Origin: a virus
Virus genome (UHGV): UHGV-0060833
Length of the DNA: 64,000 bases
Strand: one strand, 5' to 3'
The notes beneath the pieces are model-generated. The model searched no databases. It saw only the letters and a program-made list of their open reading frames with translations, and was not told where the DNA came from. Within the stretch, counting starts at the first letter, position 1. The number at the start of each line of letters is the position of its first letter. Positions 11,646 through 18,273 of this stretch are shown piece after piece. Position numbers and translations under genes: made by a program.

Positions 11646-12167
11646 TTATTTCTTTTCTGGACAAGTAGCATTTGGCTGAATTCGAGTTTCATTATCTTTA
11701 GTTGAAATAAGCACAGCAAGCCCCGTTGTAAACTGGCATGCTTTACCAACTTGAGTTGAAGTGAACACCTTAGTTCCTTCTTTATAAGTCAGTGAAACAC
11801 CTTCAACAATTGTTTTATCACTAACCAAAGAACCAGCCGCTGCACCAAGAGCCGCACCACCAGTACCGCCAGCTACAGCACCCAGTGTCGATGTGCCTTT
11901 AACATTATAACCGGCAACGCCCCCAGCAACAGCTCCCAGTACCGCACCAAATGTCTGTGCCGCTTCTTTATTAGCTTTATTATCAACTTTCACTTTAGCT
12001 GGAAGCACAGAGATAATATTGACTGTCTTTGTTTCCTGCTTCGAATTCAATTGAGCGGTATCATAAACATCGGCAGCATAATCAGCACCGCTAGATTGAC
12101 ACCCAGAAAGAAGAATTGCAGATACAACAAGAGCGCATAAAGTATACTTTTTAGACATAAGAATCAT
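11646..12167 (-). CDS. Lipoprotein with glycine-zipper segments
   Basis: 173 aa; lipobox LLSGC; GAVLGAVAGGVAG / GAVAGGTGGAALGAAAG glycine-zipper stretches; 3-nt gap to the downstream gene. Confidence 0.55.
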   Translation of the reverse strand: MILMSKKYTLCALVVSAILLSGCQSSGADYAADVYDTAQLNSKQETKTVNIISVLPAKVKVDNKANKEAAQTFGAVLGAVAGGVAGYNVKGTSTLGAVAGGTGGAALGAAAGSLVSDKTIVEGVSLTYKEGTKVFTSTQVGKACQFTTGLAVLISTKDNETRIQPNATCPEKK

Positions 12168-12448
12168 CCCAGAAAAACAAAAACCGGCGAGAAGTTACCA
12201 CGAGAACGGAAAGTAAACAAGAATACTCCCATTGACTTATATCAATTAATCAACTTTTTATAAGCTATCCCTAACTTATTGTGTATAGCTGAAAAGTCAG
12301 AGACAAGTTCACCATCTGCATTATTTCTTAAGTTAATAGTTTATTGCTAACTTAATTTATGTATCGACTATTGATATCCATCTTAAAGTTACAATATCCA
12401 TCTGCATTATTTTTCATCACAAATAATATATCTATTGCACGACACTAA

Positions 12449-12465
12449 TCTGCTCTAATAAATTT
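12449..12465 (+). promoter_or_regulatory. C1 repressor operator-like site (immunity-I region, Op51-like)
   Basis: tctgctctaataaattt matches ATTGCTCTAATAAATTT at 15/17; lies upstream of the c4/icd/ant region. Confidence 0.65.
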
Positions 12466-12644
12466 GTATTTTTAAGTCGCGAATGCTATCTTTTTGCATC
12501 ATATTGACCTTTTAATCGTTCAGGCTTATAGTTTCGCCGTCGTAGCAAATTCTGCGACCGGGTTTAGCAGCCTGAATACTTACGCGGACAACCGCAGATT
12601 TCCGATATTGCGGTATTTTTGTGTCCGTAAACCACGTTACGCCC

Positions 12645-12725
12645 GAATTATGGTGGGGCGTGATGGGGAGGCTTCGGCCTGCTGGTTTCGTAAGTGCCAG
12701 TCTGCTAACCCCGTCACGTCCTGCC
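12645..12725 (+). ncRNA. c4: c4-like antisense repressor RNA (approximate bounds)
   Basis: Non-coding stretch upstream of icd with a UUCG-loop hairpin (gaggcttcggcctg). Motif ctgctaaccc (12693-12703) is complementary to gtttagcag at 12563-12571 and 12733-12741; cggcct (12673-12678) is complementary to the icd ribosome-binding region aggccg (~12766). Confidence 0.4.
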
Positions 12726-12777
12726 ACCTGTTTAGCAGCGGGTCGCAGGTTGTTTATCAACTTACGAGGCCGTAACT

Positions 12778-15033: not shown

Positions 15034-15879
15034 ATGCTGGCTAAAGTCACTTTCCTGAGCTGTATAACGATGAGCGATTTTACTTTTTCTGGCTATGAAT
15101 TGGCTTGCTTTGTAACACACTCCGGTCTATCCCGTAGCGCCGGGCATATCCTGTCGCAATGTGCAAATCTCGCGGCAACAACCAGTGAATACTTCATTCA
15201 CAAGCCTCACCGCTTGATCGCGGCAGAAACTGGTTATAGCCAATCAACCGTCGTTCGTGCATTCCGTGAAGCTGTAAACAAAGGAATCCTGTCTGTAGAG
15301 ATTGTTATCGGCGATCACCGTGAACGTCGCGCTAACCTGTACCGGTTTACACCATCCTTTTTGGCCTACGCACAACAAGCCAAAAATGCGCTGATTGAAA
15401 GCAAATTAAAGATCTCTTCAGCCGCAACCAAGGTTAAAGCTGTTCTCGCTAAGACATTGGCTTTATTTAATTTTTTATCCACACCCCCATGTCAAAATGA
15501 TACCCCCTCCCCCTGTCAGGATGACGTGGCAATAAAGAATAAGAAGTCACAAGTTAAAAAAACAAAAAGATCAGTTTCCGGCGGTGCCGGAACGACCAGA
15601 CTCAAAAAATTGACTTCATGGATCGCTGAGGCAAAAGCAAAGGCTGACAATCTGCGGTTATCCAAAAAACGCGCTCAAAAACATGAGTTCAAGCAGAAAG
15701 TAGAGGCGGCAGCGCGGAAATATGCTTACCTGAAGAACAAGCGTTCTCCTGATATTGACGGGGTATCAAACTTCGATAATTTGCCGCATTGCATGACGGT
15801 AAACGAAGCTCTTAATGCGGTTTTAGCCAAAAATAAAGATAACGAACAATGGGGTATACCGGCAGGATTCAGAGGGTAA
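15034..15879 (+). CDS. repL: RepL lytic replication initiator (oriL expected inside the gene)
   Basis: 281-aa ORF directly downstream of kilA; N-terminal HTH-like segment; basic C-terminus. Confidence 0.75.
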   Translation: MLAKVTFLSCITMSDFTFSGYELACFVTHSGLSRSAGHILSQCANLAATTSEYFIHKPHRLIAAETGYSQSTVVRAFREAVNKGILSVEIVIGDHRERRANLYRFTPSFLAYAQQAKNALIESKLKISSAATKVKAVLAKTLALFNFLSTPPCQNDTPSPCQDDVAIKNKKSQVKKTKRSVSGGAGTTRLKKLTSWIAEAKAKADNLRLSKKRAQKHEFKQKVEAAARKYAYLKNKRSPDIDGVSNFDNLPHCMTVNEALNAVLAKNKDNEQWGIPAGFRG

Positions 15880-16047
15880 TGAATTGTTCTAATTATAACC
15901 ATGCATACTTTCAACGCCTCTAGTTTGCCATGAGGCAAACTCATAGGCGTCCTGGTAAGAGGGCACTGTTGCCAAAACTGGACGTCCCATTATTGCAATT
16001 AATAAACAACTAACGGACAATTCTACCTAACAATAAGTGGAGTTAAC

Positions 16048-16752
16048 ATGTTGAACCGAAGAACATTTAATGTATTCTGCGATGAATCCTGTCACCTACT
16101 AAATGATCATAATAAAGTCATGGTATTGGGTGCGCTTTGGTGCCCTGGCACTATCACAAAAAAAATTGCTAGAGACATCAAGGAATTAAAATTAAAACAC
16201 AATCTAAAACCTGATTTCGAAATCAAGTGGACTAAAGTATCTGCGTCCAAGGTTGAATTTTACTTAGATGTCGTAGATTACTTCTTCAGCAACCCAGCAT
16301 TGCGCTTTAGAGGTGTTGTTGTTCCTGATAAAGAGCAACTGGACCATGCTCGATTCCATCAAGATCATAATACTTTCTATTATAAGATGTTTTTTTATGT
16401 CTTAAAAAACATAATAGAAAGTAACAACACATACAATATCTACCTAGATATAAAAGATACTTTAGGTATTGAAAAAATTGAGAAATTAAGAGGAGTTCTT
16501 CACAATGATCGCTATGATTACAATCATGAGTCGATAAACAGAATTCAACATATACGATCTCATGAAGTGCAACAATTGCAGCTAACGGATCTTTTCATTG
16601 GTGCGTTAGGCTACGTTCATCGAGGAATGAATAGCAACGCGGGAAAAATCCAAGTCATAAACAGGATAAAATCACATACAAACAGGGATTTACTAAAAAG
16701 CACTCTTCCAACAGAAAGTAAATTTAATATTTTCGTGTGGGAGGCTCGCTGA
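16048..16752 (+). CDS. DUF3800-like protein (function unknown)
   Basis: 234 aa; N-terminal VFCDESCH and C-terminal QLQLTDLFIGALG motifs that I recognise as DUF3800-type; strongly AT-rich; good ribosome-binding site (aagtggag). Confidence 0.55.
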   Translation: MLNRRTFNVFCDESCHLLNDHNKVMVLGALWCPGTITKKIARDIKELKLKHNLKPDFEIKWTKVSASKVEFYLDVVDYFFSNPALRFRGVVVPDKEQLDHARFHQDHNTFYYKMFFYVLKNIIESNNTYNIYLDIKDTLGIEKIEKLRGVLHNDRYDYNHESINRIQHIRSHEVQQLQLTDLFIGALGYVHRGMNSNAGKIQVINRIKSHTNRDLLKSTLPTESKFNIFVWEAR

Positions 16753-17216
16753 TGCTTCAAATGCCAGATTTATTGTACTTCAATGGAAGTTGGCAAGAGT
16801 ATATAGACGATGTATATTATGTTGTCAGAGAAGACATTTTAATCTCTAATATAACGTTTAAGGGTCTCCCTGTTCGGTTACGTTATTCACCGGAATATGA
16901 TGGGAAAGAGTTCGGATTTTGGCATTTAGTATCAGAGGGAAAAATAGAAGAAGAACGAATACCTGATCTTGAACGGTGTAAGCGGATCCGCTGGATCGCG
17001 CATATGATAAGGAATTATAACCATTCCGATATATCATGTTGGTCTGAAAGACGAGGACCAACTGAAGAATGGGTAATCTGGAACGAGTGTGAAAACTACG
17101 TTGTTGTGCTATCCGCACGTAGAGACTATTGGCTTCTTAAAACAGCCTATGTTGTAACCTATAACAGTAAAATCAGAACACTCAAACAAAGCAGAAAAAG
17201 AGCGCTTGGGACATAA
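16752..17216 (+). CDS. Hypothetical protein, translationally coupled to the upstream gene
   Basis: TGATG stop/start overlap with 16048-16752; 154 aa from ATG 16752; AT-rich; hairpin at 17224-17253 follows. Confidence 0.5.
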   Translation: MLQMPDLLYFNGSWQEYIDDVYYVVREDILISNITFKGLPVRLRYSPEYDGKEFGFWHLVSEGKIEEERIPDLERCKRIRWIAHMIRNYNHSDISCWSERRGPTEEWVIWNECENYVVVLSARRDYWLLKTAYVVTYNSKIRTLKQSRKRALGT

Positions 17217-17382
17217 AAAAGCTGAACCCGACACATATTGCTATGTATCGGGTTCGATCGCTCTTTCTACACATGGTAGATGAGTAAGGCAAATCTAACC
17301 GATCTACTTTAGCTTTTCAATAGCTAGCTATAACTTTCCGCACATATTCTTCTGATAATTCCAGTATGGCTGTTGGGTTTTC

Positions 17383-17679
17383 TTATGCTTTTCTGCGCAG
17401 AGGTGCACATTTATTCAGCAACAATAAATGTAATTCTTTGTTATTCCTAAGTATTTCGACACACCAATATCGTAACGTGTTCACTTCAAGTGTAGCCAGC
17501 ACCTTATGTCGAAGTCCTCCCTCCCCTGCACATAACGATGACCGACATTCTGCTAAGGCACATAACCATGTATTGGCATCATAGAGAATCCAATAATGCT
17601 CCTCTGAAATAGTTTTGCATCCAATTATTTCGAATCTTCGTTCTATCGTTTCAGGAGAGTATGAAAAATCAATTTCCAT
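17383..17679 (-). CDS. Hypothetical small Cys-containing protein
   Basis: 98-aa ORF convergent with the two preceding genes; weak ribosome-binding site; terminator immediately upstream. Confidence 0.35.
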   Translation of the reverse strand: MEIDFSYSPETIERRFEIIGCKTISEEHYWILYDANTWLCALAECRSSLCAGEGGLRHKVLATLEVNTLRYWCVEILRNNKELHLLLLNKCAPLRRKA

Positions 17680-17716
17680 AATATGCTCAAAATTTCGCTA
17701 TACCAGCATAATTTAA

Positions 17717-17747
17717 GCACAAAAAAAGCTCCCGCAGGAGCTTTAAA
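17717..17747 (-). terminator. Intrinsic terminator (bidirectional shape) ending the structural operon
   Basis: aaaaaaagctcccgcaggagctttaaaa: GC hairpin flanked by an A-run and a T-rich run. Confidence 0.55.
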
Positions 17748-17763
17748 ATACAAGGGATGACTC

Positions 17764-18273
17764 TTAATCCCACTCAATCCAGTTGTAAACGATACGAAGT
17801 GACGGGCGCACAGCGGCAGTCACATCTTCGGTACTAAAGTCGATTGCATCACTGTAGATTTTGCAGTCCAACATTTCAATTGTTGTAGCAGCTTTTGTCA
17901 CAGCGTTAACCCCGGAAGATTTGGATTCAGGGGTCGCAGCCATCGTGATATCAACATAGTCCTTCGCCGCAATGCGATCTTTAATGAACTGAAGAATATC
18001 GCCTTCGATAGTCTCCACGCACTGGACCTGGATTTCCCCGGAGTTACGGATTGGACCGTGCTGGTTGAACTTCACACCATTCGGACCATAGTCCTCCACA
18101 TCCTCGCGGGTCATTTCAGGAATTTGCGACGTGCGAACCAGTACGCTGATATCTTCATGGCCTGCAAAAGTGAGCTGGAATTCAGAAGATACCAGTCGTT
18201 CGCCTTTGGCCGCGTTGGCAGTATAGCGGCCCTTAATAAATTTACGGTTTCCCTTAGTGTTATTGTGCCCCAT
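17764..18273 (-). CDS. Tail structural protein (tube or baseplate candidate)
   Basis: 169-aa ORF at the end of the structural operon, followed by the terminator. Confidence 0.45.
   Translation of the reverse strand: MGHNNTKGNRKFIKGRYTANAAKGERLVSSEFQLTFAGHEDISVLVRTSQIPEMTREDVEDYGPNGVKFNQHGPIRNSGEIQVQCVETIEGDILQFIKDRIAAKDYVDITMAATPESKSSGVNAVTKAATTIEMLDCKIYSDAIDFSTEDVTAAVRPSLRIVYNWIEWD

Follow-up and report, generated by a model that had tools for sequence, protein, structure and literature searches.

The domain DUF3800 is widespread and has an RNase H fold. DUF3800 proteins carry an N-terminal DE motif and a C-terminal QxxD motif (Mestre et al. 2020). Their genes lie beside eleven orphan RNA motifs, in retrons of type VII, and beside RNA-targeting Cas12a2 and Cas13 loci. 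Our literature search found no biochemical activity or phenotype reported for this domain. Other described systems are embedded in the operons of type I restriction-modification (R-M) enzymes. The prrC gene of EcoprrI lies between hsdS and hsdR, and TgvAB, a two-gene system inside a type I R-M operon, was shown to be a defence system. Here we analyse the genes rlfA, rlfB and pmgF of the virus genome UHGV-0060833, within a stretch of 64,000 nucleotides (nt) that we call the window. With moderate confidence, we regard rlfA-rlfB as a horizontally mobile, two-protein nuclease defence cassette of the PADLOC family PDC-M04, carried as optional prophage cargo in a hotspot between repL and bplB. Earlier records already contain the genes, the variable region and PDC-M04 as a family. 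What this work contributes is to connect P1 rlfAB explicitly with PDC-M04, to quantify the hotspot, to show that the pair is often embedded between hsdS and hsdR and has methyltransferase fusions, and to make the structural assignment.

The window is a P1-like phage-plasmid. Its repL-bplB interval is 100% identical to the E. coli plasmid NZ_AP027786.1. Positions 15900-17800 share 96.5% nucleotide identity with positions 51592-53490 of P1 (NC_005856), whose genes are rlfA, rlfB and pmgF. A preliminary description, made from the letters and their open reading frames (ORFs), had proposed rlfA and rlfB from their position, and this identity bears it out. Likewise, the three ORFs, including the convergent cysteine-containing one, are as it described them. 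The start of rlfB is the ATG at 16752; the program-made ORF list begins at an upstream GTG, at 16737. The TGA of rlfA (16750-16752) and the ATG of rlfB (16752-16754) overlap by 1 nt within the sequence TGATG, and a Shine-Dalgarno sequence (GGAGG, 16740-16744) lies 7 nt upstream of this start. The rlfB gene is translationally coupled to rlfA, as had been proposed from the overlap.

Both proteins match the PADLOC hidden Markov models of PDC-M04. RlfA corresponds to PDC-M04A (E=1.2e-95) and RlfB to PDC-M04B (E=9e-52), and their genes are adjacent and co-directional. RlfA also matches the Pfam family DUF3800 (PF12686; E=3.6e-14; score 54.1 bits, gathering score 21) over profile positions 1-148 of 149, which agrees with the motifs noticed earlier. 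More precisely, it presents both motifs of the domain. D12-E13 (DE) and Q178-L-T-D181 (QxxD) are invariant in 28 homologues. The protein has an RNase H-like fold of the RNase H2 type (type 2). By secondary structure, the invariant residues D12, E13, D134 (or D137) and D181 fall where the four carboxylates (DEDD) of such an active site would be expected. RlfA is probably a metal-dependent nuclease of the RNase H2 type whose acidic active site is intact, judging from this structural assignment. DUF3800 was its sole match in Pfam, with no Pfam RNase H family and no PDB chain similar in sequence. NCBIfam gave no match for RlfA, RlfB or PmgF.

Considering the RNA motifs found beside other DUF3800 genes, we also scanned with Rfam. 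Neither a scan of 15500-18000 at a permissive E-value nor a gathering-score scan of the window and 18 RlfAB loci gave a DUF3800-associated RNA, on the unchecked assumption that the DUF3800-I to XI, drum and skipping-rope motifs are within Rfam 15. The matches in the window and the 18 loci were tRNA-type genes, tmRNA, C4 and AsdA only. Therefore, in the RlfAB subfamily a protein partner seems to take the place that an RNA or a reverse transcriptase (RT) has in others.

This partner, RlfB, is always found with RlfA. A pattern scan that took a single genome from each species detected relatives of RlfB in 477 species from many phyla. We fetched 80 loci, and in 79 of them the gene directly upstream on the same strand encodes an RlfA homologue, usually with an overlap; the 80th locus ends at a contig edge. 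For three more RlfA homologues, found in a Bacteroidota metagenome, in Burkholderia and in E. coli, the next gene encodes 157-169 amino acids (aa) and overlaps by 4 nt in each case. The gene for the "RlfA phagic protein" of Bifidobacterium phage Bbif-1 (GQ141189) is directly followed by an RlfB homologue that lacks annotation (L102:3001-3468, 28.6% identity). Across loci, identity to the window copies rises and falls together for RlfA and RlfB (r=0.71); in 72 of 75 loci, RlfA is the better conserved of the two. HMMER found 1791 RlfB cluster representatives at E<=1e-3, and nearly all of the top 150 are stand-alone proteins with a length of 150-190 aa.

RlfB is an alpha+beta domain with a weak resemblance to RNases of the RelE/colicin-D (BECR) kind. 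It has no Pfam or PDB profile match (the best PDB match, an antitoxin, has E=1.2). An alternative explanation is a toxin-antitoxin or addiction module that stabilises the plasmid prophage, or an abortive infection system. In that case RlfB would be a RelE/colicin-D-like RNase toxin restrained by RlfA, or the reverse. We consider this explanation fairly unlikely. In a defence cassette, RlfA would be the catalytic subunit. RlfB would be its obligate, coupled partner, most likely in complex with it, and could sense the trigger, regulate the nuclease or contribute a second RNase-type activity.

Several RlfB homologues (P0002, P0007, P0008, P0010 and P0016; phrog_16230) are labelled "oxidoreductase" (RefSeq) or "replication protein" (RefSeq, PHROGs). 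Neither name was found to be backed by a domain or an experiment, and both appear to be propagated labels without evidence.

The genomic context outside P1-like elements is that of defence islands. Our scan covered 56 loci and the 112 proteins encoded directly beside the pair. They include 16-17 type I specificity subunits and 11-13 HsdR proteins, so about 30% of the RlfAB pairs lie between hsdS and hsdR. Further neighbours are TIR, AAA_15, SymE, RhuM and T5orf172 proteins. One locus has the order HsdR-MazE-PIN-RlfA-RlfB-HsdM-HsdS. In other single cases, the pair is found in a P4-like satellite, with RhuM and SymE beside tRNA-Sec, and next to an integrase in integrative and conjugative elements (ICEs) or islands.

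The domain is also fused to other proteins. In two independent loci (L010:3321-7991 and L083:2440-7956), the RlfA domain forms the C-terminal part of a DNA methyltransferase of the N6/Eco57I/MmeI type (1556 or 1838 aa), with a separate RlfB downstream. The fusion in L010 adjoins a SNF2/MZB (DISARM-like) helicase and two Cas13a genes. In a third locus (L065:4818-7955), a protein of 1045 aa has DUF3800 at its C-terminus, and RlfB is again a separate gene behind it; the N-terminal part of this protein matched no Pfam family. Finally, an island from a Bacteroidota metagenome (L098:2183-12708) contains an HsdM/S fusion, an RT (RVT_1), RlfA, an RlfB-like protein of 169 aa, HsdR, one further gene and a Piwi-domain protein (pAgo). 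As a side observation, chromosomal RlfAB islands (L004:5774-5864, L035:8859-9250, L029 and L080) adjoin genes for tRNA-Sec, tmRNA and tRNAs, where mobile islands typically integrate.

The preliminary description had called a defence or anti-defence module plausible. The PDC-M04 matches and the defence-island and R-M-embedded contexts in other bacteria strengthen the first of these. RlfAB would cut nucleic acid associated with an invader and so protect the lysogen, and hence the prophage, from competing phages or plasmids. The methyltransferase fusions and the R-M embedding suggest a DNA-restriction setting. RNA-DNA hybrids or RNA may also be the target, given that RlfA has an RNase H fold and that RT and Cas13 genes occur nearby.

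The same features can be read in the opposite sense. RlfAB could act in the lytic phase for counter-defence or take-over, for example by destroying RNA-DNA hybrid immune molecules of the host (retron multicopy single-stranded DNA, or the products of defence-associated RTs) or host RNAs. An RNase H-like fold is suited to hybrid substrates, DUF3800 is tied to RTs (in retron type VII, and as a neighbour in L098), and the pair has an early-lytic-looking position and expression with a C1 operator upstream. However, most members of the family are chromosomal and lie in host R-M operons or defence islands, not in phages. Among 50,697 phage records, RlfB occurs just in P1/P7-type phages and in one Bifidobacterium prophage (Bbif-1). 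Moreover, the DUF3800 protein of retron type VII is the retron's own associated protein and a predicted nuclease, not an inhibitor. We regard counter-defence as decidedly improbable.

In P1-like elements, the pair belongs to an exchangeable cargo block. Its breakpoints come from alignments of the window with variants that carry hokD, a 198-aa gene, Ail/Lom, or the RCS47 and phi456 arrangements. On the left, similarity stops 14 nt past the repL stop, after the first 11 nt (ATTG[C/T]TCTAAT, to about 15894) of the C1 operator Op55. On the right, it returns at the bplB terminator (about 17718). In PLSDB, 680 plasmids share the repL/bplB backbone with 95-99% identity. By megablast, only 98 of these cover at least 80% of the query. 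A tblastn search detects RlfB in 103 plasmid records, of which about 101 are P1-like, and finds 100 full-length copies of PmgF. So the block is carried by about 14-15% (98-103/680) of the P1-like plasmids with this backbone.

The remaining cargo of this slot is diverse. It consists of an 81-aa ORF with hokD (L011:1197-1779), of the 81-aa ORF with a 198-aa minus-strand gene (L012:1197-2221), of an Ail/Lom gene with the 198-aa gene (L013:1239-2844), or of insertion sequence elements. The 198-aa gene has a weak GNAT match (E=0.05). The hokD variant was seemingly the most frequent among 60 sampled rows. Published work lists rlfA-rlfB-pmgF as the low-GC "variable region 5" of P1 (GC, guanine plus cytosine) and reports its replacement in pSvP1 and pTZ20_1P. 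In a CRISPR interference (CRISPRi) study of P1 plaque formation, the efficiency of plating was 1.3 for rlfA, 0.88 for rlfB and 1.2 for pmgF, and all three genes were scored non-essential. A laterally acquired cassette, as first supposed from base composition, agrees with this distribution. The genes are optional across P1-like plasmids and dispensable for plating, and not universally conserved with a housekeeping role.

These data also bear on the oldest explanation, in which the pair is linked to replication ("rlf"; "rap" in P7). The RNase H-like RlfA, aided by RlfB, would process a transcript or R-loop that activates oriL inside repL, as RNase H makes the ColE1 primer. The pair is directly downstream of repL/oriL and probably co-transcribed with it, the two are regulated together at an early stage of P1vir infection, and the P1 record describes it as "possibly associated with lytic replication"; the RNase H2-like fold would also fit. 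Nevertheless, about 85% of P1-like plasmids have a repL of 97-99% identity without rlfAB, and carry unrelated cargo instead. The knock-down of rlfA or rlfB leaves plating unreduced. In other bacteria, the 79 loci are R-M operons, ICEs, satellites and islands, with no repL-like family among the 25 commonest Pfam families of the neighbours. A role in replication is therefore very improbable. The 20-year-old P1 label ("replication-linked") and the RefSeq names ("replication protein", "oxidoreductase") are unsupported on present evidence.

An optional and non-essential block could also be decaying cargo without a current function in P1-like elements. However, the ORFs of the three genes are intact in six independent alleles, and the catalytic residues of RlfA are intact. 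The ratio of non-synonymous to synonymous polymorphism (pN/pS) is 0.0-0.25 for rlfA, 0.06-0.21 for rlfB and 0.14-0.34 for pmgF, so the genes are under purifying selection. This largely refutes decay, which we find hardly credible.

The main weakness of a defence cassette, which would be expressed in lysogens, concerns expression. The rlfAB genes come after kilA-repL, an operon under C1 control, and after an annotated C1 operator. In P1vir RNA-seq they are reported with the early lytic genes. The sole promoter proposed inside the cargo (PrlfA) is weak. The objection from the operator is tempered by two observations. The conserved half of Op55 is backbone, common to all cargo variants, and in this window the site has 6 mismatches to the 17-bp C1 consensus. 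The breakpoint falls inside the operator, and every cargo variant retains the first 11 nt alone. The copy of this 11-mer in Op55/Orlf, ATTGTTCTAAT, has a C->T change at position 5, which is unique among the eleven copies in the window. The coordinates of this and the other features are given in the table.

Table. Features of the repL-bplB hotspot in the window (positions in the 64,000-nt stretch).
Feature	Position	Strand	Description and basis
Exchangeable low-GC cargo block	15895-17718		rlfA, rlfB and pmgF with non-coding flanks; alignment breakpoints, megablast coverage, GC
Op55/Orlf C1 operator remnant	15883-15899	+	ATTGTTCTAATTATAAC; backbone/cargo junction, first 11 nt conserved backbone; P1 GenBank annotation and alignment
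Hairpin in rlfA leader	15922-15941	+	AGTTTGCC-ATGA-GGCAAACT; 8-bp stem, no T-run
PrlfA	15993-16021	+	Weak predicted sigma-70 promoter (TTGCAA, 17 nt, GACAAT); P1 annotation, coordinates shifted by 12399
Predicted hairpin at rlfA start	16020-16043	+	UUCUACC paired with rlfA Shine-Dalgarno GUGGAGU; minimum free energy and centroid fold of leader
rlfA	16048-16752	+	234 aa; DUF3800 / PDC-M04A, predicted type 2 RNase H-like nuclease
rlfB	16752-17216	+	154 aa; PDC-M04B, small obligate partner
pmgF terminator	17224-17255	-	14-bp hairpin then T-run; intrinsic terminator closing pmgF unit
pmgF	17383-17679	-	98 aa, 6 Cys; bplB-side slot of hotspot
bplB terminator	17725-17744	-	Intrinsic; conserved backbone, right edge of cargo

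The Op55 and PrlfA assignments are transferred from the P1 GenBank annotation, and PrlfA fell below the threshold in a promoter scan that required 9 of 12 consensus positions. The 153-nt leader of rlfA (15895-16047, plus strand) is predicted to be more stably folded than shuffled sequences (minimum free energy -40.9 kcal/mol, z = -3.4). Its last hairpin, predicted over the Shine-Dalgarno sequence, may restrain translation of the putative nuclease. The preliminary description had placed three hairpins around the block. All of them exist, and the two on the right are close to where they were placed; the one after repL is offset from the proposed 15905-15930. This leader hairpin is not a canonical terminator because it has no T-run. 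On the plus strand, the pmgF terminator begins 8 nt past the rlfB stop, so its action may be bidirectional.

The pmgF gene is a real gene. A low identity of protein versus DNA had raised the suspicion that it was non-coding, which we rejected on its pN/pS and its intact ORF in the six alleles. It is bracketed by two minus-strand terminators, its own and that of bplB. The distance from its stop to its terminator is about 127 nt; the minus-strand RNA of this region (17217-17382) is strongly structured (z = -4.1) and matched no Rfam family.

Within P1-like plasmids, pmgF and rlfAB travel as a single block, which had been described as one islet of three genes. This grouping does not hold outside them. 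The rlfAB pair spans phyla without pmgF, which was not found beside the pair in loci outside P1-like elements; therefore pmgF is not part of the rlfAB module. It occupies a separate slot on the bplB side and is an independent small cargo gene that ends at a terminator of its own. Residues 1-65 of PmgF have 42% identity to the N-terminal part of the 198-aa protein found in this slot in other P1-like plasmids. The search for homologues gave two near-identical clusters only, and tblastn found distant relatives. One of them, of 106 aa (L103:2486-2806), belongs to another phage-plasmid lineage, near Ref and Icd-like genes, and has 38% identity over its full length. PGAP names it "transcriptional regulator", yet it matched no Pfam domain. 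The cysteines of PmgF are not conserved in this homologue, so we rejected a Zn-binding role for them. PmgF itself has no Pfam match and belongs to a PHROG of unknown function.

The base composition of the block is low. The three-gene interval has 37.3% GC (35.0% in rlfA, 38.9% in rlfB and 38.7% in pmgF), with 300-nt minima of 31.7-32.3%. The flanking 5 kb have 45.3% on the left and 50.1% on the right, and the whole window 47.4%. The three-gene interval is the lowest-GC stretch of 1.6 kb in the 64 kb, and only 0.3% of 1632-bp windows are equally low. The drop noticed earlier is thus real. The 30-35% estimated by eye fits rlfA, but it is slightly too low for the block as a whole.

A second low-GC stretch (30-37%) is present at 12000-12600, directly upstream of the C4 antisense RNA (12646-12731), whose a1/b1 target element lies at 12526-12578. 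It is probably the sim region, which the literature likewise lists as variable.

On this evidence, the P1 pair belongs to a family of defence islands whose members frequently lie inside type I R-M operons. The genes are dispensable and both P1 and E. coli are easily manipulated, which offers a convenient route to what DUF3800 nucleases do. A more specific and unlikely proposal is that RlfAB is the all-protein version of the DUF3800 systems, with RlfB, as a protein of RNase fold, replacing the eleven non-coding RNA motifs or the RT, and also a "guard" nuclease wired to R-M, like PrrC in EcoprrI. Its trigger would be a phage that knocks out R-M or lays bare an RNA-DNA hybrid intermediate. If this were true, P1 would be an E. 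coli genetic system for finding the substrates and the triggers of DUF3800 nucleases. Conversely, if the defence reading fails, the block is ordinary, correctly identified cargo of a well-studied phage.

Compared with known systems, the block is a typical case of the cargo hotspots and "morons" of temperate phages and phage-plasmids. It is a low-GC block inside a backbone, swapped among relatives and bracketed by terminators, with no unusual feature.

RlfA resembles the type 2 RNases H (RNase HII/H2A and RNase HIII) in fold. However, it has no detectable sequence similarity to them, is not a member of their sequence family, and carries invariant residues of its own (CDESCH, FEIKWTK and YYKM). 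It shares the domain, the DE and QxxD motifs, the RNase H-like fold and an association with immunity with the other DUF3800 proteins, namely those of retron type VII, the TPR-DUF3800 proteins of Cas12a2, Cas12a3 and Cas13 loci, and the genes associated with non-coding RNAs. The adjacency of RT and DUF3800 in the L098 island recalls retron type VII. Nevertheless, RlfA is a stand-alone protein, without RT or TPR fusion, and it retains the Q of QxxD, which is absent from the retron VII proteins. Unlike the other DUF3800 proteins, it always occurs with the protein partner RlfB.

PDC-M04 is a close counterpart. Both proteins match it in the same order and orientation, with the same distribution in defence islands and R-M operons. 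However, PDC-M04 is a computational candidate only, and the P1 copy lies in a phage-plasmid cargo hotspot, not in a chromosomal island. Our literature search found no paper naming or testing PDC-M04, and no experimental characterisation of PF12686/DUF3800 defence systems or of R-M-embedded RNase H-like ones.

Finally, we compared the pair with the defence genes embedded in R-M operons (PrrC in EcoprrI, TgvAB and the Campylobacter rlo genes). TgvAB was considered as a characterised relative of RlfAB and rejected, as it is an unrelated DUF262/DUF1524 system; PrrC is likewise unrelated, an ABC-ATPase anticodon nuclease. Moreover, the P1 rlfAB genes do not adjoin the res-mod genes of the phage itself. 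The likeness is one of place: in other bacteria, about 30% of the RlfAB loci surveyed hold the pair between hsdS and hsdR, the position of tgvAB.

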